NCBI GenBank assembly: GCA_046482545.1
Contig: JAWOEX010000023.1
Location: 27,836-91,835, forward strand
Reading direction: 5' to 3'
Origin: Candidatus Thorarchaeota archaeon
GTDB lineage: Archaea > Asgardarchaeota > Thorarchaeia > Thorarchaeales > Thorarchaeaceae
Length of the DNA stretch: 64,000 nucleotides
The notes beneath the pieces were generated by a model. It was not told where the DNA came from, did no database searches, and saw only the letters and a program-made list of their open reading frames with translations. Positions 2,803 through 54,469 of this stretch are shown piece after piece. Position 1 is the stretch's first letter. Every line of letters starts with the position of its first letter. Made by a program: the position numbers and the translations under genes.

Positions 2803-2901
2803 TTGTCCACACCAATCGCGCACTATTTTTCGGCTTACTTCCTTATTTCCAGTATCAAGTCGTGGATATCTCTTGAGCATTTGATACGCTGGGATGCTCT
2901 G

Positions 2902-6984: not shown

Positions 6985-7196
6985 TATCCGGCATTCACTT
7001 TCATTCTTCATCTTGCTTCTTCTTGCTCCTTCCAATCACTGCAAACTGGCAGTTCACGATTAGGAAATGCTAGTTCTTCGTGAATGGCGCGGTTGTCAGT
7101 GCTATTTGATTTCACGTTGTTCTGGCGGTACTATTGCTGGCTACATTAAGGGGCACAATCGTGGTAATCCCTTCCAGAAACGCGAATTTGAGTAAG

Positions 7197-7205
7197 AAAT
7201 AAATA
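7197..7205 (+). promoter_or_regulatory. TATA-like box for a probably leaderless pur operon transcript
   Basis: AAATAAATA centred about 28 nt upstream of the purN ATG; no SD before purN. Confidence 0.4.
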
Positions 7206-7228
7206 AGCCTCCTCAAGCGGCTGTTTGC

Positions 7229-7834: not shown

Positions 7835-7840
7835 GGAGGT

Positions 7841-12284: not shown

Positions 12285-12980
12285 TTGGCAATCGCAGTCT
12301 TACGGTTTCCCGGGACGAATAATGAGCATGACGTGATGCGAGCACTTGATAGGGTCTCGGGTGCCGATCCATTTCTAGTTCCAAGTCGTTTAGGTCGGAG
12401 CGCACTTGATGGTGCGGATGGTGTAGTTATCCCTGGAGGTTTCTCATACGGAGACTACCTCCGGGCGGGTGCTGTTGCTGCCGCGGGTGACATTATAGAA
12501 GGTGTGAACGAATTAATCGAAGAGGATAAGCCAGTCGTTGGCATATGTAATGGATTTCAAATCTTAGCAGAATCAAAGCATCTGCCGGGAGCTCTCCTCA
12601 CCAACGAATCTGCACATTTCATTTGTAAATGGACCTATCTGAAAGTCTCTGAAGATGCAACGCGTTTCACCCGAGGTCTTGAAAATACAATTATTCGGAT
12701 ACCGATTGCTCATATGCTCGGAAACTACTACTGCACAAGTGAGGAACTCGATAAGCTCGTATCAGAGAAACAGATTGTCTTCAGATACTGTGACAAGGAA
12801 GGTAATGTTTCCGACAAGACGAACCCCAATGGATCAACCATGAACATTGCTGGGATAGTGAACAAGAGAGGAAATGTGCTTGGAATGATGCCTCACCCCG
12901 AACGAGCTTCTAGAAGTATTCTTGGCTCCCGTGACGGATTGCTGATACTTGAGAACTTTGTGAGGGATTCAATATGCTGA
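12285..12980 (+). CDS. purQ: FGAM synthase glutaminase subunit
   Basis: FPGTN, PGGFSYGDYLRAG, GICNGFQIL, MMPHPER; TTG start. Confidence 0.97.
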   Translation: MAIAVLRFPGTNNEHDVMRALDRVSGADPFLVPSRLGRSALDGADGVVIPGGFSYGDYLRAGAVAAAGDIIEGVNELIEEDKPVVGICNGFQILAESKHLPGALLTNESAHFICKWTYLKVSEDATRFTRGLENTIIRIPIAHMLGNYYCTSEELDKLVSEKQIVFRYCDKEGNVSDKTNPNGSTMNIAGIVNKRGNVLGMMPHPERASRSILGSRDGLLILENFVRDSIC

Positions 12981-34946: not shown

Positions 34947-35939
34947 ATGGCTGGTACTTGGGCGCTAAACCTCTTTGACAGGCTGCATCTTGGGCATGAG
35001 ATTCTCCTAGAAAGGCTTTCACAAAAGCACGACCCAACTGCTGCAGTGACTACAGGTGAATTGATTGAGCACGGACTTGAACTCGCCTCCATTATTCAAT
35101 CCACATCCTATCGAGTAAAGAAGGTGACTGAATTTCTGGAATCAATCGATTTGGTAGACAAGATAGAGGTAAAGGAAATCCACAGATATGCAGAATTTCT
35201 TGAGATTCCAGGCAAGACCAAGTTCATGATGTATATTGGACCTTGTTGCACTGACCTCGAACAGCACGGAGTTGATCTTAGGAAAACACAATTGGGCATT
35301 AATGACGAAATTGAATATCTCAAACCTGTTCGAGCGGATGATGGCAAGAAGCTCTCTTCAGCAAGAATACGGAAAGGAAAAATAGATCCACAAGGGCACC
35401 GCCTGCGTGGAACCGAAGAACCACCAAGAAGATTGGATACTAGGACACGGAAAGGTCTCAAAACTCCTAAAGGAACAGTATACAATGAGAATGATTGCAT
35501 ACCTGAAAAAGAAGTAGCAGAACGAATTCAAAAAGAGGAACCACAATGTGTGGTTGCCGTTGGAGACGTTACAAGTGCTACCCTTATGAACGAAGACTGT
35601 ATCCCTGATGTGTCCATCGTTGATGGTAAAACCAAACGAGGACCGTTCGGTGATAGCTTCTCTGGAGAGAAGGAGTATCATGCGTACAACCCAGCTGGTA
35701 TGCTTTATCCAGAGGCTTGGTCTGTAATAGATACAGCAATTCATGATAACAAGAAATCGATTGTTTTCATAGAAGGTGAGGAGGATCTCATGGGATTCCC
35801 TGCAGCTGTTCTGGCACCCCAAGGGTCTGTGATGCTGTACGGTCAACCTGATGTTGGAATCGTATGGGTCCCAATCACTGCAGAGAATGTCAAACTTGCC
35901 AAGCAATTTCTAAAGGCTATGCCAGAAATCAATGGTTAA
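34947..35939 (+). CDS. Phosphopantetheine adenylyltransferase-like domain fused to DUF359 GTP-dependent dephospho-CoA kinase
   Basis: FDRLHLGH and KLSSARIR (HxGH nucleotidyltransferase); VGDVTS, DGKTKR, NPAG, GEEDL, YGQP (DUF359). Confidence 0.82.
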   Translation: MAGTWALNLFDRLHLGHEILLERLSQKHDPTAAVTTGELIEHGLELASIIQSTSYRVKKVTEFLESIDLVDKIEVKEIHRYAEFLEIPGKTKFMMYIGPCCTDLEQHGVDLRKTQLGINDEIEYLKPVRADDGKKLSSARIRKGKIDPQGHRLRGTEEPPRRLDTRTRKGLKTPKGTVYNENDCIPEKEVAERIQKEEPQCVVAVGDVTSATLMNEDCIPDVSIVDGKTKRGPFGDSFSGEKEYHAYNPAGMLYPEAWSVIDTAIHDNKKSIVFIEGEEDLMGFPAAVLAPQGSVMLYGQPDVGIVWVPITAENVKLAKQFLKAMPEING

Positions 35940-37452
35940 AAGAACGAATAGCCTGTGGAATCCGTTCTATACAATCAGTAGGAAGGATATGGTAACCGAA
36001 GTCATCAAAGGCCTTTTCGCCTGCAATTCCAGACACAAAAGCAGAGGCACATGCTGCAGTAAAGGCATTTCTCCGTCTTGCAAGAAAAGCAGCTGTAATC
36101 CCCGTCAACACATCTCCCGTTCCACCAACTGTCATGGCAGGAGTCCCGGTCTTATTCAGTTTATATCGTCCTCCAGGCTCTGCCACAATGTCGATGTGAC
36201 CTTTGAGGAGGATTACGGAGTTATATGAATCCGCAGCTTCTGTTGCATAGTTAATTCTATTTGTCAAATCCTTTGAATTCCCAAGCTCCTTCTCAAGAAG
36301 AACACTCAGCTCGCCCCAGTGGGGAGTAAGCACCGACTCTTCTGAATTGAATGAAGTGAAAGTTCCAGCTATGCTCTTCAAGCCATCGGCATCAACAACG
36401 ACCCTCTTCCCCATCTCAACAAGGGCTGCAAGTATCTCGCAAACGGCCCTAGATGTTTCTTCTTGGAGACCAAGTCCTGGACCAATTGCTATCACATCAC
36501 ATTTCTCAGCAAGCTTGATAGCCCTCTCAAGGGAATCAGGGAGTAGCACATCTGTTCCCAAATTATGCACAATAAGGCTAGGATTATACGATCTAATCGC
36601 TGGCACAACAGGGTTGGGAGCCAGAATCTCAACCAAATCTGCACCAGTTCGAAGAGCGCTTAAACCACAAAGTGCTGGTGCCCCAGAAAAAACGTCGCTA
36701 CCTCCTATTACCAGAATACGACCATAGTCACCCTTATGAGAGTGTGCGGGTCTGGGGCCTGCTACAAGTGAGAGGTCACCCGGGCCACATATCACGTCCG
36801 CCTCAGGAGGAATACCTATTGGAACCGTTACTATTTCACCGGTGTATTCCTTAGCTTCACCAAGGCCTCTTTTGGGTGCATGCATGGTGATTGTTGCGTC
36901 AGCCTTGATTACCGTCCCCCATATCTTTCCCGTGTCCGAATCTATGCCCGTAGGTATGTCAACTGAGTAAACCATCGCGTCAGAGGCATTGGTGCGTTCT
37001 ACGGCTGATCTTATGGGTTCTCTTACGTTACCACCCAGCCCGATTCCCAACATGGCATCAATGATGATATCTGCATCGTCAATTGACTTACAACTAGCAA
37101 CAGCAGATTCTGTTTTTATTTCGCTTTTCTGGATGCCATCCAGATTCTGCAGAATAGCCCAGTTATGCCGGGTATCACTGCTGGTTATTCTATCTTCAGA
37201 ACCAAGAAGGCAAACCTTAACGGATGCACCAACCTCATGGAGATGAATAGCGGCTACCATACCGTCTCCGCCATTCCCGCCACGCCCAGATAAAACTACA
37301 ATCTTGCGACTACGGACGTCCGACCGTTTGATGATTTCTCGGGCAATTTCTCTTCCAGCATTCTGCATGAGTGTTCCGAGACTTATCCCGAGATACTCGG
37401 AGTTCAGTTCAAGGACACGCATCTCATCAGTTGTCAAGGCTTCTTCCTGCAT
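35929..37452 (-). CDS. nnr: Bifunctional NAD(P)H-hydrate epimerase/dehydratase (NnrE-NnrD)
   Basis: GGNGGDG, DIPTG, HKGDYG, GPGLG, VDAD, LTPH.GE, GGTGDVL. Confidence 0.95.
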   Translation of the reverse strand: MQEEALTTDEMRVLELNSEYLGISLGTLMQNAGREIAREIIKRSDVRSRKIVVLSGRGGNGGDGMVAAIHLHEVGASVKVCLLGSEDRITSSDTRHNWAILQNLDGIQKSEIKTESAVASCKSIDDADIIIDAMLGIGLGGNVREPIRSAVERTNASDAMVYSVDIPTGIDSDTGKIWGTVIKADATITMHAPKRGLGEAKEYTGEIVTVPIGIPPEADVICGPGDLSLVAGPRPAHSHKGDYGRILVIGGSDVFSGAPALCGLSALRTGADLVEILAPNPVVPAIRSYNPSLIVHNLGTDVLLPDSLERAIKLAEKCDVIAIGPGLGLQEETSRAVCEILAALVEMGKRVVVDADGLKSIAGTFTSFNSEESVLTPHWGELSVLLEKELGNSKDLTNRINYATEAADSYNSVILLKGHIDIVAEPGGRYKLNKTGTPAMTVGGTGDVLTGITAAFLARRRNAFTAACASAFVSGIAGEKAFDDFGYHILPTDCIERIPQAIRSFNH

Positions 37453-37645
37453 GTTTTCTCACCTTGCTCTTGACAAGTAGATGGAACATTCCTAATGAAG
37501 CCTTTCAAATACTCCATTCTTCTATGAGTTCATAAAATATGGGAGGATAACTGACTTCTAATTGGAAAAAGGATGAAGAAAAGTCCGGACGGTTGTTTCA
37601 CACGGACTCTCAAACCAGACCGGTTGGCACCTGAATCCAATGACG

Positions 37646-39178
<1,533 letters not shown>

Positions 39179-39189
39179 TCATGGATGAA

Positions 39190-39760
39190 TAGGGCAGAGT
39201 TTCCGTTCTTCATATCGATTGAGATCAAGCAGGCACGGAATAATCCCAGAAGAACGGTTTGAACAACATAATGAAATACGGTTTTAGAGTCTGCATCTAT
39301 CAGGAAGCTTCTCAAAGAAGATTTTGCCCATCCAGTTCTTGAGAAAATCGAGACAACCTCTGCCAAAGTTGAAGATTTCAGGAATCTCGAAATTTTCAGT
39401 AAGCAGAAACTAGAAGCCCTTGGCTCAAATGAGCTTGCTCTTGGCCTACGAATGTTCGCACAAGAGAAATTCCAGTTGGCATACAAACATTTTCAGACCG
39501 CGGCCCAATTTGATCGGGATAACATTGTTGCTTTTTGGAAACTCGGAAGGCTCGCCAAAATTCAAGAATTCGCAAATAGATGCAAGTTCTAGTACCGTCT
39601 TGCTATGTCTCTTTCAAACCGTCTACAGAACCCTCTTCGAGACAAAATTCAGGGAAGACTCAAAGATGAAAAATCAATGGATCAAAAACATATTGAAAAA
39701 CTGGTTATGCCCGTGTCGAGTTTGTACCATTTAAGAAGAGAAATGTATCTCGGGTGGTAA
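39190..39760 (+). pseudogene. Decayed TPR-repeat protein gene between nfnA and nfnB
   Basis: Frame from 39281 reads ...LGLRMFAQEKFQLAYKHFQTAAQFDRDNIVAFWKLGRLA...KF*YRLA..., with in-frame TAG at 39590 and stop at 39760; the 5' part is frameshifted. Confidence 0.6.
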
Positions 39761-39855
39761 AAAATTGACCCTTTTTTCATTTCAATGCTATACAAAGAAA
39801 CGAATGAAGTCGAACCAGACAGATACCAATTGAGTAATAGACCAGGTATACTGGT

Positions 39856-40689
39856 TTAATGTCCGTGTTCAAACCGGGAGACAGCTATAGCTTCCTCTTG
39901 CCAGTATGCGTTCAACCGCCCCATGAGCTCATCGAAATCAACTTTATGACCATCGAATTCTGGGCCATCGACACATGCAAATTTCATCTCACCGTCAATA
40001 TTAACACGACAGGCACCGCACATACCCGTACCATCAACCATGATACTGTTCAAGCTAACGATGGTGGGAATCTCCTGTGCTTCTGTGGTCTTGCTAACGA
40101 ATTTCATCATGGGAACGGGTCCGACAGCGAAAACGAGGTCAATTTGTCGACCCTTTTCGATTAACTCACTAAGGACAGTAGTAACAAAACCGTGACGTCC
40201 ACAAGTTCCATCGTCTGTTGTCTCATAGAATTCGTCGCTAAGGTCATACATTTCTTTTCGGTACAACAGAAGGTCCATGCTGCGTGCGCCGTTTATTGTT
40301 ATCATATAGTTGCCTGCCTGTTTGAAGTCTCTAGCAACGGGATAAGCAATGGCACTTCCACAGCCTCCGCCAACTACCACAACGGTTCCATAGTGCTTGT
40401 CGCTCGGAGTGGGTTTTCCAAGTGGTCCTACAACATCTAGAACTTCATCACCAACCTCTAGGCTACCCAGAAGCTTTGTTGTTTTGCCAACTTCCTGGTA
40501 GACGATTGTTATATCGCCCTTTCCTCTATCGAAATCAGCAATAGTCAAAGGGATTCGCTCCCCTGTTTCGTTCACTCGGATTATGACAAACTGGCCCGGT
40601 TTGCATACTTTCGCTATGTCGGGTGCCCGAATAACATTCATTTTTGTGACCGGGTTCAAGATGTCTTTGAAAGTAATCTCATATGGCAT
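39856..40689 (-). CDS. Ferredoxin-NADP reductase-like NfnA/SudB small subunit
   Basis: PGQFVI, ERIPLTI, GPLG, MVDGTGMCGACR, CVDGPEF. Confidence 0.93.
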   Translation of the reverse strand: MPYEITFKDILNPVTKMNVIRAPDIAKVCKPGQFVIIRVNETGERIPLTIADFDRGKGDITIVYQEVGKTTKLLGSLEVGDEVLDVVGPLGKPTPSDKHYGTVVVVGGGCGSAIAYPVARDFKQAGNYMITINGARSMDLLLYRKEMYDLSDEFYETTDDGTCGRHGFVTTVLSELIEKGRQIDLVFAVGPVPMMKFVSKTTEAQEIPTIVSLNSIMVDGTGMCGACRVNIDGEMKFACVDGPEFDGHKVDFDELMGRLNAYWQEEAIAVSRFEHGH

Positions 40690-40965
40690 CACTCATCGCC
40701 TCAAAAGGGCCTTTAGTGGTCCGATAGACATATGCCGGTGCCACTTCACATCAGAGATAAAAGTTTGGGTTTTGTCCTTTGCCTGTCCCTGCGAAAGGAG
40801 GACGAGGATCATACATTCACCAAGTTTCTCAACTGACAACGAACTAGGTGAAAATTATCACTGGTCTGTCAAAGGAAATCTTGTTCCATTATCTCTCGCA
40901 CCCACTAACAGGAATATAAACTCACCAGGGTGTAGACTAGCGGCATCTGTAGCTGAATAAATGGG

Positions 40966-41634: not shown

Positions 41635-43377
41635 TCAGCGTGCATAGATTCTTCGCGTTTCTCGCACTACCAATCCGAAGAGATCGTCAGCAGAATCCAA
41701 CGGTATAACCTGTGCGCCAGCCCTAGAAAGATCGGCATCCAGATTATCACCTGAATATCTTGAAGATCGAATATGAAACAGGAAAAACCTATGGCCAGCC
41801 GAACAGATTCGCTTGATAGACTTCAGTAATCCGTCCCAGTTAGATATTTCCGCATCAGTCATCATCAGCACCAGAAGACTCCCTTTGGAGGATTCACACA
41901 GATTTCGGATTTCATTGACTGGCGCAATGGTAGACCCCCCCTGATAGGATGCGAGAATATTTTCTATTCTTGCACGTTCCCTAGTCAGCCCTGACGTTTT
42001 CACAGTTCCCGAGAAGTTGATAGCTGCTACCTTCTTCGCTTTCTTCAGCGCAAAATCAACTGCGGCAAATGCAGATAGGAGGGCAAGATGATAGGGACCG
42101 CTAGGTTTGCCGTTTTGTATCGACCAGTTCATCGACCCGCTTGAGTCTATTACGACCAACAGATTGGGCAATGAAGCAGGTATACCTGAGCCCTCTACAT
42201 TTGTTTTCAACCATCTGCGAGTAGACATATTGGGAACAAGCACCGGAAAGGCCTGCAAAGATTGAACAATATCAAGCTCCTCAACAGGGTCGCCTATCCT
42301 CCATGCGGAAGGTGCCAGCGGAATATTGCCCTGTGTGGATTCTGATGTAACATCAATTCTTAGCATGTCCTGTACCGCTGCCCGGTACCAGAAACGAATC
42401 CATCTCTTCTTTGATTGATTCTTACCAGCAAGCAGGTAGACTGACTCAAGGTCATCCAAATCACCGTCTCGCTCGATGACTTGTTTTGCCATGCTGCCCA
42501 TCACGGCCTCTTCGTCGTAGGGCTCATTTTCATCAAGACACTTTTTCACTCTATCTTTGTTTCTGATTTCGATTGGACTACCCATCATCACCTCAACGTC
42601 TGATGGGACAGCAACCTGCCTTCTGGAACCTTTATCGGAATCCTCCGTTCCTTCAGAGGGTATTTCCGTTGACTCAAGCAGCTCCCCTCCGGATTCCTGT
42701 GACCAGTCAGCCAAGACGCACGCGATTTCACCTGTTGCCTTCGGCCACAGTCTTTCCAATTTCATATACTTTAGAGCAATACTGGATATGTCCTCAGCAG
42801 TTGATAGTGTATCCGCATCCAAAGAGACTCCTTTGGGCAATTCTAAACCCCATAAATGATGGTAGCAACTCACTATGAGCCGCCAAAGCTTGGACTGCGA
42901 ACGTTGAAGACCGGCGGAATGTTGAATTGAATGAGAAAGCCGATTCTTAGTGATAGCCAGAAATCGATCCATTAGATTAGAATCAACCACCATGTCAGCA
43001 AATAGATTGCATGCAAACATTGCGTTGGCATCATCGAGGTACTTCCTCGCTCGTGAAAACATCATGCCATTGGTTACACCGTCATACGGGCACAGAAGAT
43101 AGTGCTGAACCTCATGCTGACAAATCGATCTGAGAAAGGATTTGGTAGCCTCGGTTTTCAGATTTGGTGGAATGCCTTTGAGGTTGATATGTACGGTCCA
43201 ATCACATGGGTCTATGTAAAAGTAGCTAGATGCTTCCGTCTTGTTTTCAATGATTGGCTCAGGAAGAGGAGGGTGATAGAAGTCATCCATGGCATACGAC
43301 CAAGCCTCTTTGGCTAACTGGATAGGATTTGAAGTACGCCTTTCATCCTTTAACCAGTCAACCATCGAAAAATTCAC
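41635..43377 (-). CDS. vWA (MIDAS) domain protein with N-terminal HExxH zincin-like metallopeptidase domain
   Basis: HEVQH then NLFADMVVD; C-terminal VIDSSGSM, INFS, GGST, MMTDAE. Start overlaps MoxR stop (GTGA). Confidence 0.85.
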   Translation of the reverse strand: MNFSMVDWLKDERRTSNPIQLAKEAWSYAMDDFYHPPLPEPIIENKTEASSYFYIDPCDWTVHINLKGIPPNLKTEATKSFLRSICQHEVQHYLLCPYDGVTNGMMFSRARKYLDDANAMFACNLFADMVVDSNLMDRFLAITKNRLSHSIQHSAGLQRSQSKLWRLIVSCYHHLWGLELPKGVSLDADTLSTAEDISSIALKYMKLERLWPKATGEIACVLADWSQESGGELLESTEIPSEGTEDSDKGSRRQVAVPSDVEVMMGSPIEIRNKDRVKKCLDENEPYDEEAVMGSMAKQVIERDGDLDDLESVYLLAGKNQSKKRWIRFWYRAAVQDMLRIDVTSESTQGNIPLAPSAWRIGDPVEELDIVQSLQAFPVLVPNMSTRRWLKTNVEGSGIPASLPNLLVVIDSSGSMNWSIQNGKPSGPYHLALLSAFAAVDFALKKAKKVAAINFSGTVKTSGLTRERARIENILASYQGGSTIAPVNEIRNLCESSKGSLLVLMMTDAEISNWDGLLKSIKRICSAGHRFFLFHIRSSRYSGDNLDADLSRAGAQVIPLDSADDLFGLVVRETRRIYAR

Positions 43378-45107
43378 CCTTCACCGTCAAGAATCTTCTC
43401 TACTTCCTGCTTCAATTCGACCGCCGACTGGCCTCCAGAAACCTCAAAGAAGACTGATGAGTCTGGAGAAGAGCCAGTGGTGTAGATGACCATGGTCATA
43501 TTATCTGCTCTAGCTACCTTACGCCTCGGGGGCTTGAGTGTCTCTTTGAGCAGTGGAGTAAGTTTGGGGAATTTCATACTGACAGTGGTCCAGAGATCTT
43601 TCCATTGCTCAAATGTCAGACTGTACTGTGAAAGCGTTAGTTTGTGTAACGCATCATTTACCCTTCCCACTAGTTTGCTTCGATTTGGAAAATCAGTATC
43701 TGAAAGAAGCTTGTCTTGAACTTGACTGAGCTCCTGCACATCTTCTGAGGAAATTGCATCATCGATACGGCGTACCATTTTTTTGTATCGGGACTTGTTC
43801 AGTTCAGAAGCAAGATCCACATAGTCAATCTTTACCAGCAAATCGCTTTTTGCCATATCTTTGATTTCACGGATAGCCGAATCACTAGCTCTACCCTCTT
43901 TGAAATCGTGAAGCAATTCTATCGCTGTTTGTCGCTGAGCAAATCTATTTGCAGCTAGTTCTACAAGATGGGTTGTGAAGGCAAAGCGATCCCCGTAGAA
44001 TGGGGAACCCTCAATTTTGTCCCGCACGTATTCGGTACGGTGCCAGAAAACCAGTGGTGCAATTGATTTGACCAGCTCAACGCTGACCTCACCTGCACCC
44101 AGCAGCCAAGCAGCTGCTTTTGAATATCTCTTCAGGTCTTTTGCTGCTCGAACGCTGAGGGGGATGATTACACTGTTGCATATACCCTTTGGCGTATTGA
44201 AGTGGCATCCATCGCATAGTCCTGACTGAACTGTCAGTTCCTGTGATTGGCTCTTGTCGACCCTAACGCATGCTCCAAACTCTCGAACGAGGGATCTCAT
44301 GAACTCAGAAGATTCAGCAGTAACTGGAACTTTATCCACAAGGTTCCAGATTGTCAAGAGATTCTCTTCATTGAGTATTGCAGGAACCTGCCATAACTCG
44401 TCATATCCGAAAAGTTTCTCGTCTCTAGTGGATAGTATCAAATCCAAATCATCCACAGTAGGCATTGTTATCGGTACAGCTATACCGAACCTGTCGAGGA
44501 AAGGTGGCGAAAGCTCAAAGGTACCTGCATCAGCCGGATTCATTGTTGCATACAGACAGAATTCTTGACATCTCTTGACTTCATCATAGTACTTTAGTTC
44601 GCCTTCAGCCAACATTGAAAGCAGAATATTCTGAGCATGTGGAGTAAGCCTGTTGATTTCGTCCAAGATTTTCCAGAAGCCTGTTACGAATTTCCGCCAT
44701 ACAACCACTTCCACCCCTTCCTTCATCAGAGGGCCAGGACGAAGGGTAGCGACCATCTTCTCTTCTGTCAGCTGCGGATGACCCCTCAGTACACCGTCAT
44801 CAATCTCATCAAGGCTCTTTCCAGTCATCATCCGTCCCAAGAGTTTGATAAGCGTCGTTTTTCCACCACCATGACCTCCAACCAAAAGCATAGCGGACCT
44901 CGGAACTAATGCGTTCAGGACACAAGCACCAACAACCAGGGGAAGTCTCTTGGTCTTAGCGCGAACTGAAGAGTCACCAGCCGGTCGGAATCGCAAATCA
45001 AGATCGGTTGAGTGAACAAAGAGACCGCGGCTTTCCAGTGTGGTGATAACCTGCCATACCTTGTCTTGCAGGTTGGTTGAAGTACTCTCCATTGTGTCCT
45101 TCACCAT
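43374..45107 (-). CDS. MoxR-family AAA+ ATPase
   Basis: GGHGGGKTT, ILDEINR, ATMNP, FLDRF, SVRAA; Cys cluster C..CDGCHF...C; start uncertain (45092/45107/45119). Confidence 0.88.
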   Translation of the reverse strand: MVKDTMESTSTNLQDKVWQVITTLESRGLFVHSTDLDLRFRPAGDSSVRAKTKRLPLVVGACVLNALVPRSAMLLVGGHGGGKTTLIKLLGRMMTGKSLDEIDDGVLRGHPQLTEEKMVATLRPGPLMKEGVEVVVWRKFVTGFWKILDEINRLTPHAQNILLSMLAEGELKYYDEVKRCQEFCLYATMNPADAGTFELSPPFLDRFGIAVPITMPTVDDLDLILSTRDEKLFGYDELWQVPAILNEENLLTIWNLVDKVPVTAESSEFMRSLVREFGACVRVDKSQSQELTVQSGLCDGCHFNTPKGICNSVIIPLSVRAAKDLKRYSKAAAWLLGAGEVSVELVKSIAPLVFWHRTEYVRDKIEGSPFYGDRFAFTTHLVELAANRFAQRQTAIELLHDFKEGRASDSAIREIKDMAKSDLLVKIDYVDLASELNKSRYKKMVRRIDDAISSEDVQELSQVQDKLLSDTDFPNRSKLVGRVNDALHKLTLSQYSLTFEQWKDLWTTVSMKFPKLTPLLKETLKPPRRKVARADNMTMVIYTTGSSPDSSVFFEVSGGQSAVELKQEVEKILDGEG

Positions 45108-45264
45108 GTAATCTTCCAATATGAGACATGCTTATGGCTACTATGGTTATAGCTCTATCTGAGGACTTCACGAACCAATAAAGGCGCGAAAAGGGGAACC
45201 GCTTGCAAAGGTATTAAGTGTTCAACGGGAAATTTCGAGAAGGTGTTAACGCCGGGTAAGCACT

Positions 45265-46332
45265 ATGACGACAGAAGATATTGGCGAAGTCATCGATTTT
45301 CAACCAGCGGACGAAATTGACTCAGAAAAGATTAGACAGCATAGTGTTATTCAGAAATCTAAGGAATTCATCGCCAGCCTGAAGGAATATGGAAGGGTTG
45401 GAGGAGAGCTGAACAGGAAGGTGAAAGTGTTTTCGGGTTCAGCTCTATTGTTTGGAAGTAAAGGGACGGATTTTCTCGGCTTTGCAGAAAATGTAGCTCT
45501 AAATCTCAAAGCGAACATTGTGAGATTCAGACTCTCTCAGGCTTTATCTGAAGATGCGAATATCGCGTTAGCACTCAGAACATTATTTGGTTTTGCAGCT
45601 CGAAACAAACCAAGTCTAGTTTTCCTAGAGCATTTGGATCTATTTGCAGAGGAATCTACGAACCAAGCGGCTGTTCTGAAAGCAGAGATTTCCCGTATTG
45701 ATTGGGTTAAAGAAGATACAGTATTCATCGGGTGCACCACCAGACCACGCCAGGTTGATACCCAAATTCTTGGAACCGTTGATAAGACATACATTATTCA
45801 GAAAACAACCACCGAGGACAGAATCAGACTACTAGAAGAAGTGTTGGCTCAACGTTCAGATTTGGATGCGAAATCGGTGGCGGAGGCTACAGAGGGTTGG
45901 AGCTATTCCGACTTGAAACACCTAGCAGGAAGTCTGCTTCTCATGGACCCTAGTAGAAAAGATGAACATTCTCCAGCGACAGTTAGGGCGATGATTCAAG
46001 CCGCCAATATCCTGCCAGTAGGACGCCCACAGATGGCCGAAGCTGCTTTCAAACAAATCGAAGAGGGATACAGCCCACAACTGCAAGATTTAGAGGAGAT
46101 ATATCCTGACACCCTTATTGACCAGCTGTACTTGATGGCGGTCGGAGAGGATTACGTACGAACTCAAGAAGTGGTTGAAAATCTGAACAAAGGGATGCCG
46201 CTATCAACTGAAGAGCAACAGTTTCTGAACAAGTACCCATTTCTGCTGCAAGGCGAATCAGAAGACAGGCTGACAAGGCTATTGAGAGCAAAGAAGACAC
46301 ATGATAGGCTGAGCAGGGTGTTAGGAAGATAG
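45265..46332 (+). CDS. Catalytically degenerate classical-clade AAA protein (CDC48/Vps4-like pseudo-ATPase)
   Basis: ALLFGSKGTDFL (no Walker A Lys), PSLVFLEHLD, IGCTTRP, no Arg finger, TEGWSYSDL lid motif. Confidence 0.72.
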   Translation: MTTEDIGEVIDFQPADEIDSEKIRQHSVIQKSKEFIASLKEYGRVGGELNRKVKVFSGSALLFGSKGTDFLGFAENVALNLKANIVRFRLSQALSEDANIALALRTLFGFAARNKPSLVFLEHLDLFAEESTNQAAVLKAEISRIDWVKEDTVFIGCTTRPRQVDTQILGTVDKTYIIQKTTTEDRIRLLEEVLAQRSDLDAKSVAEATEGWSYSDLKHLAGSLLLMDPSRKDEHSPATVRAMIQAANILPVGRPQMAEAAFKQIEEGYSPQLQDLEEIYPDTLIDQLYLMAVGEDYVRTQEVVENLNKGMPLSTEEQQFLNKYPFLLQGESEDRLTRLLRAKKTHDRLSRVLGR

Positions 46333-46354
46333 GACAGGAGGTCGTCAAGGAGCG

Positions 46355-49300
46355 TTGCCACATGAAATCAGAATTCGGTCGATATGTATCAAAAACTTCC
46401 TTAGCTTCTATGAGGGGGAAGTTGACCTCAGTCCAGGGCTTAACGTGATTGTTGGACCTAACGGTGCTGGAAAGACCTCAATTTTTCACGCGATGAAATT
46501 TGCCCTAGGATCTAATCAACGAGAAAAGAGATACAGCAAGTGGAGTGATTTCATTCGTCATGGTGGTAGAACAGCCAAGGCGGAAATCACAGTTGATACA
46601 GAGAAAGAATCACGCACACTAACTCGGAAGATATCAAGAGGGGGTGTTCCCAGAGCTTACATCGACGGAAAACGTGTGAAAGCTTCAGAACTTCGAATGC
46701 TTGTCGATTCCTACGACATTGATGTGGATAACAACTTGGTATTCATGCCTCAAGAACGCATCAACGCATTGAGAAACATGAATCCAGTTGAAGTTCGGAA
46801 ACTCATAGAGGAGGGAACCGGCCTTGACGAACTCAGACAGCAAATCGAAGCCGAGGTTACTAGGCTAGCCGCCACAAAAGAGAGGCTTGAAACAGCAGTA
46901 AGCGAATCTGAAACCGTGAGAAATCAACTTCATCTTCTCAGTTACGATCTTGAACGGCTCGAAAAGAAGAGAGATTTACTTGAGAAAAAGAGGACATTAC
47001 AAGAGGAGCTGAACTGGGCAAAAATCAAGCATTTGGAAAAGGGGATTGCTGCACTTCAGAAAGATATCCGGGAGAAGAACAAAGGTCTCAGTAAGGTGAT
47101 TGAACAATCAGAACATGCCAAGGCCAAGAAAGATGCCACCGACGAAAAGGTAAGCAGCTTGAACGAGCAAACAGACGATATGAAGATGGAAATGGCGAAA
47201 CTTGAGGCTCGAATTGAACAAGAAGAAGAGAGATTGGAAGGACTTCATGAGGAGAATCGGAACAATCTCAAGGAAATTCAGGAACTCAGGAAGAGAATCA
47301 AGAAGAAGGCCACGCGATCACATACATTAGAAGAGCAATTGGATAATCATAACCTGATTGTGGAGAGCTATGAGAGTAGAAAGAAAGAGCTGCAGCAATC
47401 GCTTGAAGAAATTGAATCTGAGCAGGAAGAAATCGAAGAAAAACTGACGGAATATGCGGAATGGAATGCAGAGAGAGCAAGAGTTCACGGCGATTACAAA
47501 ACGCTCAAGAGCGAATTGAAAGGGAAGGACGTTCTCTCAAGAAGTCTCATGGAACGCCTACAAGTTGAAAAAGCAGAACTAGATGGCATCGAAAAGAAAT
47601 GGGCGGATGTGTGGTCAAAGCTCGAGAAAACCGATGAGGACGGGTTGAGGGAGGAAAAAGTAACCCTTGATACAAGAATAAACCAAATCAAAGAGCAACA
47701 ATTTGAAGTCAAAAGCCAAGCAGCGACTATCAGCAAGGAGATAGACAGTATTGAAACTCAACTATCAGAGTTCTCAGCGAGAATACCTGATTCAGTCAAG
47801 AAACTCAGTGAATCTGTCAAGAAACGCGGCCTAAAGAGAGTCTTTGGACCAATAATAGAGATTCTCCGACCTCAAGAAAAATTCTCAAAAATGCTCGATT
47901 CGGTTCTCCGCGAAGATTTGCCATTTGCGTTCATTGTGGAGGAAAGTGCAGATTACCAACTTATGCTCAAAATCCGTAATCAACTAAACGCACCTTCCCC
48001 GTTGATTTATGTAAAGGAAAACAAAAATCCCGGAGAAACGAGTTTAGAGCATAAAGAACTCGAAAAACATGAGAATATTCTTGGTGAGCTATGGGAACTT
48101 GTCGGGCTATCTGAGGAGATGCTAAACAGGTTCCGTGCAGCCTTTGGCAGCTATGCAGTGACCCGTGATGGTGATTCAGCCGCACAAGTTGCTTCTGAGC
48201 AGCACATAGGAACAATTTCACAGAAGGGGGATGTCTTTGATGCACCGACAAACGCTGTCATCAGCTATCCACCCAGAGAGGATACAGGATTGTTATCAAC
48301 GGCACCTTTGAAGGATCGGTTGGATGTGCTCCGTCAAAACCTGCAGGAAAGAGAACGGGCGATTGCAGAGCTTGAAGGTCGCTCTGAAGAGCTAATACAA
48401 GAAAGAAACCAAATTGCAGAGTTCATCGAGCAGGTACAGATGTGGGATAGCACATGGAACAAGAGAAATGACCTCAGAGAAAGTATCAGCAACCTAGACG
48501 AAAGAATTGAATTGGTTGAGGAAGATAAGGCCGAAATTGCGGCCAATCTGAGCACACGAGAAGAAGAACTGAAAGAGCTCGAATTGAACCAACCGCCAGG
48601 GCGTAGCAAGCTCATGGGCCAGCGGTCTGCCCTGACGAGCAAGAGGAGGAGACTAAGAAAAGAAATCAATGATATACGTTCAAGATTGAAGCAAGCAGAA
48701 CACAAGGCAGAAGAGCTGCGAAGGGAACTCCATGAGGTTAACCATGACAAGAAAATCTATTCAGAAAGCCTGAAACAACTCAAACAAACAGTTTCGAAAT
48801 CTGAAGAAGAGGCAACAGGTATACTACAAAAGATCGAAGCGATGAGAGAAAGACACGGTAATGTAGAGCAACAGTATCACACAACCATGGCCTCTCTTGA
48901 AAAAGCCAGGGAAGAACAGCGGAAAATCGGAGAGAGACTCGTTGAGCTCAATTTACGAATCAGAGACAGTAAATTGGAAACGATGCAAAGCCAGAGACAA
49001 TTAGATAACATGAGAGATGAATTCAAGGCAGCAAAACAGGAACTTGGTGATTCAAAAAGACCTGATGCAGTAAGAGATTTCGAAACTGTTACCAAAGATC
49101 TCGTCAAGACACGCCACCAGCTTGATGATTATAATGATGTATCAGAAGCTGTCGCTCACACGGAATCGAAACTGAAACAGCGGCTTGTTACGCTTGAAAC
49201 TCGAGTGAGCGAGACAAGAACCGAGCTGAAAGAAGCAGAAGAAACGGTGAGTGATATTCGTATCCAGTATGAAGAGGGTATGAGAGATGTTCTCACCGAA

Positions 49301-49750
49301 ATCGAGGAAAAAATACATCGAATTCTTTCAACGGTTTCTTTCGCTGGCGAGGTCAGATTCGCTCTTGAAAACCGGGATGACTACGGGGTTACCTTTGAGA
49401 CCCGATTCAGAGAGGGTGACTTCAGAAGCTTGAGCGCTGGTTCTGGCGGGGAGCGATCCCTTATTGCCATCGCCCTCATACTAGCATTACAAGATCTCAA
49501 TCCTGGCCCAATCTACGCGCTAGACGAGGTGGATACGTTCCTTGACGCAACGAACACAGAGATGATCAGCAAACTACTTTATGATTCATCACGGCGAAGT
49601 CAATTCATTCTGTTCACCCCCGCAAAGACAACATACCTTCTGAAGCATGCAGACAAGAGGATTGGTGTGGTATCTCCAAAGGGCACAGAGCCATCGGTTA
49701 TTATCGAAAGCCCTGAGTTCCTGAAATCCGAGAAAGCAGAGGTAGTCTAG
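46355..49750 (+). CDS. SMC ATPase, Smc5/6-related type
   Basis: GPNGAGKT, FMPQERI Q-loop, two long coiled coils, hinge VFGPI...AFIV...D lacking GX6GX3GG, SGGERS signature, LDEVDTFLD, FILFTP. Confidence 0.9.
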   Translation: MPHEIRIRSICIKNFLSFYEGEVDLSPGLNVIVGPNGAGKTSIFHAMKFALGSNQREKRYSKWSDFIRHGGRTAKAEITVDTEKESRTLTRKISRGGVPRAYIDGKRVKASELRMLVDSYDIDVDNNLVFMPQERINALRNMNPVEVRKLIEEGTGLDELRQQIEAEVTRLAATKERLETAVSESETVRNQLHLLSYDLERLEKKRDLLEKKRTLQEELNWAKIKHLEKGIAALQKDIREKNKGLSKVIEQSEHAKAKKDATDEKVSSLNEQTDDMKMEMAKLEARIEQEEERLEGLHEENRNNLKEIQELRKRIKKKATRSHTLEEQLDNHNLIVESYESRKKELQQSLEEIESEQEEIEEKLTEYAEWNAERARVHGDYKTLKSELKGKDVLSRSLMERLQVEKAELDGIEKKWADVWSKLEKTDEDGLREEKVTLDTRINQIKEQQFEVKSQAATISKEIDSIETQLSEFSARIPDSVKKLSESVKKRGLKRVFGPIIEILRPQEKFSKMLDSVLREDLPFAFIVEESADYQLMLKIRNQLNAPSPLIYVKENKNPGETSLEHKELEKHENILGELWELVGLSEEMLNRFRAAFGSYAVTRDGDSAAQVASEQHIGTISQKGDVFDAPTNAVISYPPREDTGLLSTAPLKDRLDVLRQNLQERERAIAELEGRSEELIQERNQIAEFIEQVQMWDSTWNKRNDLRESISNLDERIELVEEDKAEIAANLSTREEELKELELNQPPGRSKLMGQRSALTSKRRRLRKEINDIRSRLKQAEHKAEELRRELHEVNHDKKIYSESLKQLKQTVSKSEEEATGILQKIEAMRERHGNVEQQYHTTMASLEKAREEQRKIGERLVELNLRIRDSKLETMQSQRQLDNMRDEFKAAKQELGDSKRPDAVRDFETVTKDLVKTRHQLDDYNDVSEAVAHTESKLKQRLVTLETRVSETRTELKEAEETVSDIRIQYEEGMRDVLTEIEEKIHRILSTVSFAGEVRFALENRDDYGVTFETRFREGDFRSLSAGSGGERSLIAIALILALQDLNPGPIYALDEVDTFLDATNTEMISKLLYDSSRRSQFILFTPAKTTYLLKHADKRIGVVSPKGTEPSVIIESPEFLKSEKAEVV

Positions 49751-49752
49751 CC

Positions 49753-50400
49753 ATGGTGGGAATCAACGACCTCGAGAATACAGTAAGAAGATTGCTCAGG
49801 GAAGTCGAAGCTGGAGAAAAGGACCCGCTTGCTATCAAGCTGGTCGAGTCCTACAGAAACCTTAGGGATGTAGATGCGGGCGTCGATAGGAGAATCGATG
49901 TTGATGGGACACTGAACACTCTGCTGGAGAATAAGACAACTAGAATTCAGGAACTAGCCAGAATACTCGCTTCACCTGAGGTGTATGTGAACAGGATAAG
50001 CGAAATGAAACCGATGAGTATAGCAAAGCTGATTTCTTACAGACAGCCTATGACCATTTCACACCTCAATGTCAGTGGTATGCACAAATCATTTTCCCGG
50101 ATTCTTGGCATGATGGAATCTAGAGAGAAAAGCATGCTTGAAGAGGAGAATCCTCCGTCAACTGCTCAGCCGCAAGACGAAGTAATGGAAATAGAGGACT
50201 CTATAACCATGGAGAATTTGAACAGGTTCTTGAAGTACGTTCCTGAAAACCAAACAATCAGCTTGAAGGAACTACTCGCCAGTCCAAATATGGACGAATT
50301 CCTTAGAAGATTTCTGTGTGTAGTATTGCTGATATCGAGGGGATTGCTGAAATATGATGGAGAAAACGTGAAACGAATGGAGATGCGGACCGATGAATGA
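49753..50400 (+). CDS. Kleisin (ScpA/Nse4-like)
   Basis: N-terminal VEAGEKDPLAIKLV resembles ScpA GEIDPWDI; C-terminal wHTH ISLKELL...FLCVVLLISRGLL; starts 2 nt after the SMC stop. Confidence 0.72.
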   Translation: MVGINDLENTVRRLLREVEAGEKDPLAIKLVESYRNLRDVDAGVDRRIDVDGTLNTLLENKTTRIQELARILASPEVYVNRISEMKPMSIAKLISYRQPMTISHLNVSGMHKSFSRILGMMESREKSMLEEENPPSTAQPQDEVMEIEDSITMENLNRFLKYVPENQTISLKELLASPNMDEFLRRFLCVVLLISRGLLKYDGENVKRMEMRTDE

Positions 50401-50905
50401 ATTCGCGGTCTTGATGAGGCTTCTCACGCAACCCGGAGTGCCCAAAGGGGCTGGAGTACAGGACATGCTCGATGCCATGGGACTCCCTGAAGAAACTGGC
50501 AGAAGTGTCCTGTTCAAGAAGCTTGGCAAGCTCGAACGTCAGCTAAGAAGGCTTGGTCTGCAAATCAGGCACAATCCGATTCACCACGTATTCTATATCG
50601 ATATGCAAGAGGATATTGAGGTTCCAATTACCGAGGGGCGCTTGCCTGATCGCCTAGCTGCCACTCTCCTTGTTGTTCTCACGCTTACGTATCAAGAAGG
50701 GGGATGGGTTTCGGTAAATCGAGTCAAGAAGTTTAGGAAAAAGTCACTTCGCAGCGTAAGGACGGACCTGCGAGAACTCGAAAGGATGAACTATATACAG
50801 CTTGATGATGATAGCCAAAAAGTCCGACCCGGATTCAAAGTAGCATTCGAAGTAGATTACGACTCGTTTTTTAGAGAATTGACGGATTTAGAGATGGAAG
50901 AATAG
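50393..50905 (+). CDS. Kite (tandem winged-helix, ScpB/Nse1/Nse3-like) subunit
   Basis: 170 aa; LERQLRRLGLQI...FYI, AATLLVVL, LRELERMNYI, VRPG..VAFE; overlaps kleisin stop. Confidence 0.7.
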   Translation: MNEFAVLMRLLTQPGVPKGAGVQDMLDAMGLPEETGRSVLFKKLGKLERQLRRLGLQIRHNPIHHVFYIDMQEDIEVPITEGRLPDRLAATLLVVLTLTYQEGGWVSVNRVKKFRKKSLRSVRTDLRELERMNYIQLDDDSQKVRPGFKVAFEVDYDSFFRELTDLEMEE

Positions 50906-50961
50906 GTACGCATTCGCTAGTTTTATCAGGGAAAGACACCGCAATTGAATTGGTTCCAAAG

Positions 50962-51321
50962 ATGGCAGATAAACGTGGACTTCGATTCTCAAAAGCAACC
51001 TGCCCAATCTGCGGATGCAAAGAAGTCGCCCATGATTCAAGGAAAGGTGAGCTTCTGTGTACCAACTGCGGCCACATTATCGTACGCAAAGAGACCAGAT
51101 CAGTAGGAAAGTTCGAGATTGCTCAGCGCCTCAAGCGTAACGGGCAGATGGACTTCTCTGGCTTAGTGGAGACAACAAATGCATCAGACGATAGCCTATT
51201 TGGCACTCTACAAACCATGGAAGACAGAGGTCTTATCCGTAACTCTGGTAATCAATATATGCTGACGAAGAAAGGAAGGCGTTGGTACAGGCAAAGATTG
51301 GGGCAAGAATGGGGCTATTGA
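50962..51321 (+). CDS. TFIIB-type Zn-ribbon fused to winged-helix domain
   Basis: CPICG...DSRKGELLCTNCG; LQTMEDRGLI...YMLTKKG. Confidence 0.72.
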   Translation: MADKRGLRFSKATCPICGCKEVAHDSRKGELLCTNCGHIIVRKETRSVGKFEIAQRLKRNGQMDFSGLVETTNASDDSLFGTLQTMEDRGLIRNSGNQYMLTKKGRRWYRQRLGQEWGY

Positions 51322-51631: not shown

Positions 51632-52969
51632 TTACGGGCATTCCACGGCGTAGCCTAGTGGTTCAAGTTCTGAGTTGACAACATCGATAACATCTTCACA
51701 ATCCCAGCGCTTGCCAAACAGGATTGAGACAATGATTTGTTCGTACGGCGGAATAAACGATAGACCGCTAGCCCGGAGGATTCGCTGATACTTCTCCTGA
51801 ATCTGTTTGTCTTTCAGATACTTTTCCATTTCAGAGATGCTTGCGTTGTACTTATACAACATCTGGATGGTTCGCTGGATATACCGGTCGCGCGGGACTT
51901 TTGCACCTGAGCCAAAGAAATCCTTCACATTCTGCTCGTACCATTCCTTCATCTGGTCAACAGTGTATACAGGCATAACTGCAGGAGGTTTGCCTTCTTG
52001 GGGTTCAATGCGCACGAGATTGCGACTCTCAGCAGCTCTCACAAAATCTCCAAACTTGTCATAGCCAAGCTTTGTGAAATCAATACCGGCACTTCGTACC
52101 TTTTGAACAACACGTTCCATACCCATGTAATCGCTCTGGCTAGCCATTGATTCTACAAGATCCCTGAACCGTTCGAATGTGGCGTCAAGGGTATCGGTCT
52201 GATCTTCAGTCAATTTGGCAACTGATTTCCTGAGTTTGAGCTCAGAATACGGTTTCTCTCCTTCCTTGACAACGAGCTCCTCAATCAACGCTTGTGAAAT
52301 CAGCTGCCCCCAGTCATCAAAGCCTAATCGGGTAATATCGATTTCCGGATTCAAGTGTTTCACAACTGCTTGAACATACCTCGGATATGTTGCCTTACCG
52401 AGCTTTTTGATTCTGACAATTGTCTCCTGGAGTCTCCTGAACCCTATGGCTCGCACCTCTTCAGGTGAGCGCTGCGCGGTTTCTTCTTCTCCAATAATCT
52501 CCAAATCGTAATCAGCAGGGCGGAATGAATCGATATCGTAATACTCATCAGAACGAATCACTGTTTCAGGTCTAGTAATCATTGGACTGCTGACAACAAT
52601 CACATTCTTGCCTTGCTTCTGGAGCGCAATCATAAGAGGCTCGAAAACAGCGTCGGATGATACGAGTATGAATGATTCCGTTTCAGGCGACCGCACAAGC
52701 CAATCCACAACGTAGGTGGCCATCTGGCAATCAGCACTATCTTTCAAATCATCCGGCACATGTATCAGGTCAAAATCGATGCGATAGAGCCGCTTTCCAA
52801 CATCTTGATACGGTCCGTTCCAATCTGCAAATGCATATTTTACTTCAGCATTATAATTCTCATCAAGCCAATTCTTGAAACCCTTTGCTATCCGTTCATC
52901 TCGCACTGAGGTTACATTCTCGGCATCCCAAAATACTGCTGCTTTTTGCGTGTTGATATCAGGACTCAT
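51632..52969 (-). CDS. NYN (LabA/DUF88, PIN-fold) ribonuclease with LOTUS/OST-HTH-like repeats
   Basis: FWDAENV, AFADW, KDSAD, LVSSD.VF; two repeats D.T.LG(F/Y)..(W/F)G...... Likely start ATG 52969. Confidence 0.8.
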   Translation of the reverse strand: MSPDINTQKAAVFWDAENVTSVRDERIAKGFKNWLDENYNAEVKYAFADWNGPYQDVGKRLYRIDFDLIHVPDDLKDSADCQMATYVVDWLVRSPETESFILVSSDAVFEPLMIALQKQGKNVIVVSSPMITRPETVIRSDEYYDIDSFRPADYDLEIIGEEETAQRSPEEVRAIGFRRLQETIVRIKKLGKATYPRYVQAVVKHLNPEIDITRLGFDDWGQLISQALIEELVVKEGEKPYSELKLRKSVAKLTEDQTDTLDATFERFRDLVESMASQSDYMGMERVVQKVRSAGIDFTKLGYDKFGDFVRAAESRNLVRIEPQEGKPPAVMPVYTVDQMKEWYEQNVKDFFGSGAKVPRDRYIQRTIQMLYKYNASISEMEKYLKDKQIQEKYQRILRASGLSFIPPYEQIIVSILFGKRWDCEDVIDVVNSELEPLGYAVECP

Positions 52970-53226
52970 TGCATTGCCACCTGAAACTGAGGAACTGTGT
53001 GACTGATTATTCAAAATAGAGACTCCAATTATACTTTCTTGCTGTGAGGAGAAGAGCCCTTTTCGGTGGTGAACTTTGAGGACTATTGTCCCCCTCGTGT
53101 TTAGCGGTCATTCATCACTTATAGGTTACTCGGCAGAGGAAACAAACTATCAAAACCTCTGAATTCCCCGGGTAATACAACCATGTGTGACAGGTGTCTT
53201 GTGAAATTCTCGTACCTCCCAACCGG

Positions 53227-53854: not shown

Positions 53855-54469
53855 TTAATCCTTGCGTTCCTGCTGTACGTATTCGTCTCTCAGATTATCC
53901 AGCCAGAATGGTGCCCCTCGAAGCTCAGAAGCTTCTTCGTCAGATAGCTCCCTGCGCTCGACTTTGGTCATATCATCAGGAAGAATGGCACTAACCCCTG
54001 CAGGGTCCTCGATGACTAGTGTAAAGCTCAGATTTCCTTCCAGAGCTTCGCCCAATTTTTCCATTATTTCTTTGCCCAGTTCTTGCTGCTCTTCGGTGTC
54101 AGCACTCCGCAGTGCAATCCCGGTCACATCGTGCATCCGCTGGACAACACCTTCAACATTCGAAATGAAGGCTTCTGCTGCCGGTCCGGGTTCAACATCG
54201 ATACCGAAACCGGGTAGTCTCATGGTTCCAGAACCCGAACGAATGACCCTTGTTTTCAATAACTCAGCGTCATCAACTTCAAGTTCCCAACGAACTGGAG
54301 GTCGCTGTTCCACCGAGAAGATGTCTTTCTGGGTAAATCCACATTCAGAGCATTTCATCATGAAAATGACCAACTCATTGAAATAGGGCACGGGATAAAC
54401 CATGGACTTCACTGTCATGCTTTTTTTCTCGCATGCAGGACACTCGACGGTAATCTCATCAGCAGACAT
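53855..54469 (-). CDS. ZPR1 zinc-finger domain protein (archaeal)
   Basis: CPAC...VPYF...CSECGF, RVIRS, ISNVEGV, EDPAG.S. Confidence 0.93.
   Translation of the reverse strand: MSADEITVECPACEKKSMTVKSMVYPVPYFNELVIFMMKCSECGFTQKDIFSVEQRPPVRWELEVDDAELLKTRVIRSGSGTMRLPGFGIDVEPGPAAEAFISNVEGVVQRMHDVTGIALRSADTEEQQELGKEIMEKLGEALEGNLSFTLVIEDPAGVSAILPDDMTKVERRELSDEEASELRGAPFWLDNLRDEYVQQERKD

Follow-up and report, generated by a model that had tools for sequence, protein, structure and literature searches.

A 64,000-nucleotide (nt) stretch of DNA from a Thorarchaeota archaeon (contig JAWOEX010000023.1 of assembly GCA_046482545.1; this entire stretch is referred to below as the window) contains a group of six genes, in which a MoxR-clade ATPase and a vWA-domain protein are encoded divergently from a degenerate AAA protein (pseudo-AAA), an SMC protein, a kleisin and a kite. 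The best explanation of the results described here is that these genes form a vertically inherited chromosome-maintenance unit of Asgard archaea. The SMC-kleisin-kite core of this unit belongs to the already published class of archaeal SMC5/6-related operons, whereas the accessories, viz. the MoxR-vWA pair and the pseudo-AAA, suggest that Asgard archaea, the prokaryotes closest to eukaryotes, handle their SMC rings with a machinery not described so far. A check of the open reading frames (ORFs) in the window agreed with an earlier reading of this DNA, made without database searches (the sequence-only reading), in regard to the positions and strands of seven ORFs and the gaps of 22, 2 and -8 nt separating the pseudo-AAA, SMC, kleisin and kite genes. 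The features (lengths in amino acids, aa) are as follows:

41635..43377, minus strand: vWA gene, 580 aa, zincin-like peptidase, acidic linker and vWA adaptor
42133..42147, minus strand: metal-ion-dependent adhesion site (MIDAS) motif DSSGS of the vWA domain, D411-S415
42994-43008, minus strand: partner motif N124-x3-D128 of the vWA protein
43102..43116, minus strand: putative zinc site HExxH (HEVQH; H88-H92), predicted helix
43374..45119, minus strand: MoxR-clade AAA+ ATPase gene, about 577-581 aa, 4-nt overlap with the vWA gene
45120..45264: divergent intergenic region between the MoxR and pseudo-AAA genes, 145 nt
45265..46332, plus strand: pseudo-AAA gene, 355 aa
45454-45474, plus strand: degenerate P-loop of the pseudo-AAA
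46096-46329, plus strand: 78-aa helical C-terminal domain of the pseudo-AAA, the best conserved part of the protein
46355..49750, plus strand: SMC5/6-related SMC gene, 1131 aa
49753..50400, plus strand: kleisin gene, 215 aa, Nse4-related type via orthology to the published cluster
50393..50905, plus strand: kite gene, tandem winged helix-turn-helix (wHTH), 170 aa, Nse1/3-related type via orthology
50950..51321, plus strand: TFIIB-like Zn-ribbon and wHTH gene, a neighbour in Thorarchaeales only and outside the unit

Linkage of the accessory genes to the SMC genes

The extent of the unit is indicated by its loss in one genus (g4). Four genomes of this genus are without exactly the six genes and keep both flanks, including the Zn-ribbon/wHTH gene, which NfnA abuts on one contig. 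Both breakpoints fall no more than ~30 nt from a stop codon, that of the vWA gene on one side and that of the kite gene on the other; in a congener (G200), all six genes are present between the same flanks. Based on these breakpoints, the unit consists of six genes, and the Zn-ribbon/wHTH gene, which the sequence-only reading had counted as a seventh member, has to be excluded from it; a seven-gene unit was thus rejected, as this gene stays behind when the six others are deleted, and it is also missing at the Jordarchaeales, Baldrarchaeia and Lokiarchaeia loci. A mobile island was likewise rejected, because the GC content of the unit is unshifted (0.456 vs 0.460 for the genome) and the g4 junction has no repeat beyond 2-4 nt.

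The sequence-only reading had allowed that the accessory genes might not be syntenic with the SMC gene in related genomes. However, in a survey of gene neighbourhoods the MoxR-vWA pair and the pseudo-AAA were found beside the SMC in at least five Asgard groups; these genes survive rearrangement beside the SMC and are also deleted together with it. In Thorarchaeales, the MoxR-vWA arm is divergent from a pseudo-AAA, SMC, kleisin and kite arm; in Jordarchaeales and Baldrarchaeia all six genes form one co-directional run in the order MoxR, vWA, pseudo-AAA, SMC, kleisin and kite, and on a Helarchaeales contig the vWA gene is similarly co-directional and upstream of the pseudo-AAA and SMC genes. In a further layout (locus L173), the pair instead follows the core (pseudo-AAA, SMC, kleisin, kite, MoxR, vWA), with gaps of 1-6 nt at the kite, MoxR and vWA genes and of 1 nt from the kite to the pair. 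Flanking genes are otherwise not shared between these groups; the exceptions are a PIN-like toxin gene, common to Jordarchaeales and Baldrarchaeia, and the Zn-ribbon gene, which occurs in two families of Thorarchaeales. At the L173 locus (1400-9947), a second pair of AAA_5 and HExxH-vWA genes, from another family, is found together with four unknown genes directly upstream of the pseudo-AAA-SMC operon.

In Lokiarchaeia, the MoxR-vWA pair lies outside the SMC5/6-related operon, yet within ~6 kb of a different SMC gene (clade B) and its ScpB. This pattern is seen in 12 genomes from two families, inclusive of Promethearchaeum syntrophicum MK-D1, where the clade B ScpB gene is turned to run with the MoxR-vWA pair. 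The clade B SMCs form a separate clade (support 100/100) without an adjacent ScpA. Such a third SMC of Lokiarchaeia (~1200 aa) with ScpB and without an adjacent kleisin was recorded at L095:3177-7393, L096, L103, L105, L148, L149 and L151, and the SMC-ScpA-ScpB set of Lokiarchaeia uses an SMC of 1470-1500 aa with long ScpA and ScpB.

Further evidence comes from a sister clade of MoxR-vWA pairs (100% support), which has another upstream partner and no SMC within 10 kb. The vWA proteins of this clade have lost H88, E89, H92 and D128, and the HExxH motif is thus kept in the SMC-associated clade only. The sister genes form a three-gene operon for a 430-491 aa protein, MoxR and a vWA protein with a dead peptidase domain (L109, L110, L111, L140-L143 and L145). 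No family match was found for its first gene, and its relationship to the pseudo-AAA was considered and rejected (hhalign probability 0.5%).

Across 221 Asgard genomes, the pseudo-AAA and vWA genes are both single copy; by family, the former occurs in 47/55, 1/1, 3/4, 1/1, 47/51 and 4/4 genomes and the latter, in the same families, in 49/55, 1/1, 3/4, 1/1, 40/51 and 4/4. In a Jordarchaeales family (f7), the SMC and vWA genes are jointly present or jointly missing in all five genomes. Related genomes are not independent of each other, and the evidence for linkage therefore amounts to roughly four layouts that are independent, together with a single co-deletion and a single loss of the motif.

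Other genes near the unit in the window include those for an NnrDE-like repair enzyme and an NfnAB/SudAB-like transhydrogenase (35929-40692, minus strand; named by sequence reading), which are conserved neighbours within Thorarchaeaceae only, an NYN nuclease with LOTUS-like domains (51632-53014, minus strand), which is present at this position in only one of 26 related loci, and ZPR1 (53855-54469). A sigma-70 scan of the divergent region gave results at chance level, with a model that is unsuited to archaea.

The SMC core, the pseudo-AAA and the MoxR-vWA proteins

The genome under study carries a canonical SMC-ScpA-ScpB set on another contig (C23) and, because of this, the SMC of the unit represents a second SMC. 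Its TIGR02169 score of 287 bits is far below the cut-off of 729, its Walker A, signature and Walker B motifs are intact, the switch His is replaced by Pro, and the hinge motif GX6GX3GG, present in the canonical SMC of the same genome, is missing. In a tree of SMC heads, which omits seven rows with a P-loop off the search pattern (five Lokiarchaeia orthologs of family f9 among them), SMCs of this type form a separate clade (support 96/92). Profile searches against the PDB could not separate SMC5/6 from condensin/cohesin, with the N-terminal head tying Smc5 and another eukaryotic SMC head and the C-terminal head favouring Pyrococcus Smc. The matches of the two smaller proteins are weak but specific: the kleisin profile best matches the C-terminal wHTH of Pyrococcus ScpA (4i99_C, E 0.02; also 5xns_C), and one member of the kite family matches ScpB (PF04079, E 1e-6). 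The three genes adjoin in one operon in the Thorarchaeales locus and in related Asgard loci.

The identity of this core is clarified by MK-D1. SMC5/6-related SMC-kleisin-kite operons of TACK and Asgard archaea are described by van Hooff et al. (bioRxiv 10.1101/2024.01.07.573240), where genes 495-497 of P. syntrophicum are one such operon. The MK-D1 orthologs of the unit are located in the cluster DSAG12_00496-00499 on the plus strand (pseudo-AAA, DSAG12_00496; kleisin, DSAG12_00498), which lies ~0.31 Mb round the origin from the minus-strand SMC-ScpA-ScpB set. As this agrees with what that paper gives for genes 495-497 in number (offset 2), order, strand and spacing to the condensin-related set, we infer that the two clusters are the same. 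It is thus very probable that the second SMC encoded at the locus is SMC5/6-related and has a kleisin and a kite of its own, and the Smc5/6-type assignment made in the sequence-only reading was right, for a core that is itself already published.

Two other kinds of SMC loci were also seen. Another non-canonical SMC type (943-1082 aa; L128:2174-8731, L129:1290-7122 and L131:7428-12535, in families f17, f20 and f6) has downstream of it two genes of kleisin and kite size, after which come genes that by eye are ubiquitin-system-like (E1/ThiF-like, JAB-like and Cys-rich); it groups with the SMC of the unit, but on long branches. Further, some Jordarchaeales (L123 and L124) have two canonical-type SMC-ScpA-ScpB sets, one of them adjoining a Cdc48-like gene.

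In a structure search, the pseudo-AAA model shows a classical AAA fold (FtsH/spastin/PAN) followed by the helical C-terminal domain of 78 residues. The P-loop Lys and the Walker B acids (DE) are lost, in accordance with its earlier description as a dead classical AAA, and a canonical P-loop is seen in only one of 191 homologs. However, the Freyarchaeum ortholog (WXG40903.1) has an intact Walker A, with Asn in place of the catalytic Glu, and the ortholog on the Helarchaeales contig also has an intact Walker A; hence, the gene has decayed in place from an ATPase. The C-terminal domain occurs as a single copy in 104 of the 221 genomes (six families) and has 107 matching representatives in a set of 1.8 billion proteins, and an Atlas search with it retrieved its own family only. 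As the pseudo-AAA gene is directly upstream of an SMC5/6-related SMC in every locus examined, with even the weakest matches (E about 1e-4) sitting directly before an SMC, the protein probably serves this SMC complex alone, likely as its fourth subunit. Catalysis was lost yet the operon was never left, and the pseudo-AAA is thus most simply regarded as a structural partner; it can be predicted with good confidence to take part in the complex without catalysis, to attach to the ring via the conserved helical domain at its C-terminus, and to fill the place that loader or arm-binding factors have in other SMC complexes. In Freyarchaeum deiterrae (L125:6694-11701), the gene preceding a shortened SMC, kleisin and kite encodes an AAA whose Walker A is intact and which has an additional coiled coil at its N-terminus; no MoxR-vWA pair was found there. 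Open frames of ~1580 aa in two Lokiarchaeia genomes were considered as AAA-SMC fusions and rejected, as separate ORFs are present.

The MoxR gene (AAA_5 match, E 5e-15), correctly described before as overlapping a HExxH-vWA gene, has an intact Walker A (GGHGGGKT), Walker B, Arg finger and sensor II, by which it is predicted to encode an active ATPase. It also contains four invariant Cys in a lid-region insertion and an extra C-terminal domain, and its mean column identity over four families is 70%. In Lokiarchaeia of family f9, MoxR genes in genomes G195 (L098:6329-6358 region) and G119 (L100, gene 12050-13831, minus strand) are interrupted by 30-nt in-frame inserts containing stops; the insertion point falls between RGH and PQ of an invariant motif, and the G119 gene has one further site. 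The first insert is compatible with a bulge-helix-bulge, and the reading frame is regained if each 3-nt bulge is cut behind its second base; these inserts are candidate mRNA introns rather than pseudogene lesions. Split MoxR genes are also present in nine metagenome loci (L214, L238, L240-242, L247, L248, L251 and L252).

The helical N-domain of the vWA protein carries HExxH (on helix 75-94 of the predicted model) and N-x3-D. A linker modelled with low confidence connects it to the vWA domain, which has a full MIDAS and a fold matching vWA domains with Z 18. The family architecture is uniform (556-650 aa), and HExxHY, NxxxD and the MIDAS sequence DSSxSM are found in 120 of 120 homologs. Whole-length fold searches of the PDB retrieved vWA domains only; in the Atlas there is one bacterial whole-length relative (TM 0.68), with Peptidase_M48 in 13% of its members. 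The DUF2201_N and CobT profiles gave no match to the vWA gene, and no DNA-binding or SprT-type match to the peptidase domain was seen. From these motifs, the N-domain is a putative zincin peptidase that is plausibly active.

Possible roles of the MoxR-vWA pair

MoxR hexamers use vWA adaptors, in which the MIDAS grips a client that is then remodelled in an ATP-driven manner (viz. CbbQ/CbbO, NorQ/NorD and RavA/ViaA). By analogy with these systems, the ring, with the pseudo-AAA as its non-catalytic subunit, would work on the chromosome, and the MoxR hexamer would dock on the vWA protein, whose MIDAS would grip the client. The client would then be pulled by ATP hydrolysis and its exposed part cut by the zincin domain of the vWA protein, so that a ring subunit or an obstacle is unfolded and cut and the ring is released or recycled. 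The balance of the evidence is slightly in favour of the MoxR-vWA pair being an optional ATP-driven remodeller/peptidase that acts on SMC rings or their chromatin substrates, and it is rather more probable that its client is a component of the SMC ring or a DNA-bound protein that obstructs the ring, with the pair serving as an optional unloader or recycler. The sequence-only reading, which had suggested that the ring is loaded, unloaded or opened by proteolysis and had drawn the analogy to Cdc48 with Wss1/SPRTN, is supported in part only, these mechanisms being hypothetical. A more specific proposal is that a dedicated ATP-driven unfoldase-protease pulls and cleaves one of the ring subunits, such as the kleisin, so as to open or recycle SMC rings in which the dead AAA is the fourth subunit. 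This proposal is tentative and rather unlikely, and cleavage of the kleisin specifically is doubtful. If the proposal is true, the pair would be a prokaryotic counterpart, by convergence, of the control of eukaryotic SMC complexes by separase, Wapl and Cdc48.

A number of observations weigh against assigning the pair to the SMC ring. The loss in g4 is a single event, and contiguous genes can go together. In Thorarchaeaceae, MoxR and vWA are syntenic with the SMC in 26/26 and 25/26 loci, but the unrelated NfnAB genes are nearly as syntenic (20-22/26), and therefore this family alone proves little. The main genera of Lokiarchaeia keep the pair without an SMC neighbour, and among 80 metagenome loci of the pair, 22 are beside the SMC5/6-related operon and 3 beside a clade B SMC, 12 are long and without an SMC neighbour, and in the other 43 the sequence ends early on one or both sides. 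Further, no MoxR or vWA match was found in four Lokiarchaeia genomes (93-100% complete) that have the pseudo-AAA, and the pair was not found in six Freyarchaeum genomes (one closed) that keep the pseudo-AAA, SMC (here shortened to about 835 aa), kleisin and kite; due to this, the pair has to be considered optional. In the vWA protein itself, what we take to be the usual third-ligand Glu position of gluzincins is occupied by Asn, so that protease activity is not certain, and the whole-length structural relatives of this protein occur in bacteria.

Several of these observations would also be expected if only the pseudo-AAA, SMC, kleisin and kite form the real unit and the MoxR-vWA pair is a general chaperone/peptidase for another complex, which is near the SMC through shared ancestry or co-regulation. 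Besides the Lokiarchaeia and Freyarchaeum genomes where the pair is unlinked or missing, this explanation is favoured by the sister clade, which works with another partner, by a chelatase-like gene (by sequence reading) near the pair in family f23, and by a jumbo-phage MoxR-vWA pair with an N-terminal metallopeptidase for which an assembly role is proposed (PMC7824862). However, it is opposed by the four distinct layouts in which the pair adjoins SMC genes (tight and co-directional in two of them), by a co-deletion that extends to within ~30 nt of both outer stop codons, and by the retention of HExxH in the SMC-associated clade only, and we regard it as unlikely.

Wadjet and human SMC5/6 recognise plasmid or viral DNA, and the unit could by the same token be a nuclease-free defence system, in which the ring recognises such DNA and the MoxR-vWA pair, as effector, destroys invader proteins or triggers a response. 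The six genes are dispensable in g4 and patchy across the phylum, and the MoxR-vWA ternary conflict systems have an inactive NTPase as a third component (PMC7159879). However, defence, which the sequence-only reading had offered as one option, is not favoured by the single copy of these genes, their presence in 85-92% of the genomes of large families, a tree that follows taxonomy, a GC content like that of the genome, metabolic flanks, and the lack in the unit of variable effectors and of a nuclease. In PADLOC, the vWA, kleisin and kite proteins had no match, the rest had generic SMC/AAA matches only, and no system was called; hence, this explanation is improbable. Improbable, too, is the repair of DNA-protein crosslinks or roadblocks, where MoxR-vWA would unfold and cut proteins stuck on DNA beside a ring that is not its client, since the unfoldase and zincin architecture (as in Cdc48 with Wss1/SPRTN in eukaryotes), the action of eukaryotic SMC5/6 at stalled forks and a genomic link that fits equally well are set against the lack of a DNA-binding or SprT-type match and of repair genes conserved nearby.

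Comparison with known systems

The seven-gene arrangement had earlier been put forward as undescribed. This holds for the accessories, as a literature search (subscription journals outside its coverage) found no paper linking MoxR-vWA or a pseudo-AAA to SMC/kleisin or Asgard, but not for the published core. To our knowledge, the loading and removal of prokaryotic SMC rings is understood for a few bacteria only, and we know of nothing reported on accessories of the archaeal SMC5/6 ancestor. The unit names three concrete candidate accessories that are present in cultured MK-D1, with genus g4 as natural knock-outs, the sister clade without HExxH as a natural catalytic-site control, and Freyarchaeum and Helarchaeales providing near-active ancestral forms of the pseudo-AAA. 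The question of how SMC5/6 was regulated before Nse2/5/6 thus becomes open to pull-down and reconstitution.

Of the known systems, Wadjet (JetABCD/MksBEFG) also has an SMC-kleisin-kite core plus a fourth gene. However, the Asgard gene order of SMC, kleisin and kite differs from it; the JetD/MksG Toprim nuclease, already noted as absent in the sequence-only reading, was not found in the unit at any locus examined, the kleisin and kite have no match to JetA/JetB of PADLOC, and the JetC matches are partial and generic (E 7e-12). Identity with Wadjet/MksBEFG was therefore rejected. The ternary conflict systems of iSTAND and FtsH types (Kaur et al. 2020, PMC7159879) similarly combine MoxR and vWA with a catalytically inactive NTPase nearby. 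Unlike them, the third gene here is a single classical-clade pseudo-AAA tied to the SMC and not to MoxR, and the unit has no variable effector domains and is vertically inherited in archaea; this identity was also rejected, given the uniform vWA architecture and a third gene that is not of VMAP, iSTAND, FtsH or propeller type. The jumbo-phage MoxR and metallopeptidase-vWA proteins (PMC7824862) resemble the Asgard pair in their architecture. Known MoxR-vWA pairs (CbbQ/CbbO, NorQ/NorD, RavA/ViaA and CobS/CobT) share with it an intact MoxR gene overlapping a full-MIDAS vWA gene; the NorD vWA is among the top fold matches of the vWA protein, and CobT shows a weak feature likeness to its N-domain. 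However, the Asgard pair differs from all of these in its association with SMC genes and in the four invariant Cys of the ATPase.

Eukaryotic SMC5/6 (with Nse1-6) is, like the Asgard unit, a kite-type SMC complex. The SMC head motifs of the unit, viz. the Q-loop context and Pro at the switch position, are presumably SMC5/6-style. We know of no AAA+/vWA partner of eukaryotic SMC5/6 and, unlike it, the Asgard unit has one SMC gene and one kite and is without a RING or SUMO ligase, with a dead AAA as accessory in place of Nse2/5/6. Among archaea, the unit is close to the SMC5/6-related operons of van Hooff et al. (10.1101/2024.01.07.573240) and Yoshinaga & Inagaki (2021, PMC8665677), in which, likewise, one operon encodes a second SMC together with a separate kleisin and kite, in addition to the canonical SMC-ScpA-ScpB set of the genome. 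The main text of van Hooff et al. does not mention AAA genes, and in the portions consulted these operons have no pseudo-AAA, MoxR or vWA partner. For MK-D1, that text gives two SMC sets, to which the present work adds a third, the kleisin-less SMC-ScpB pair that lies beside MoxR-vWA.

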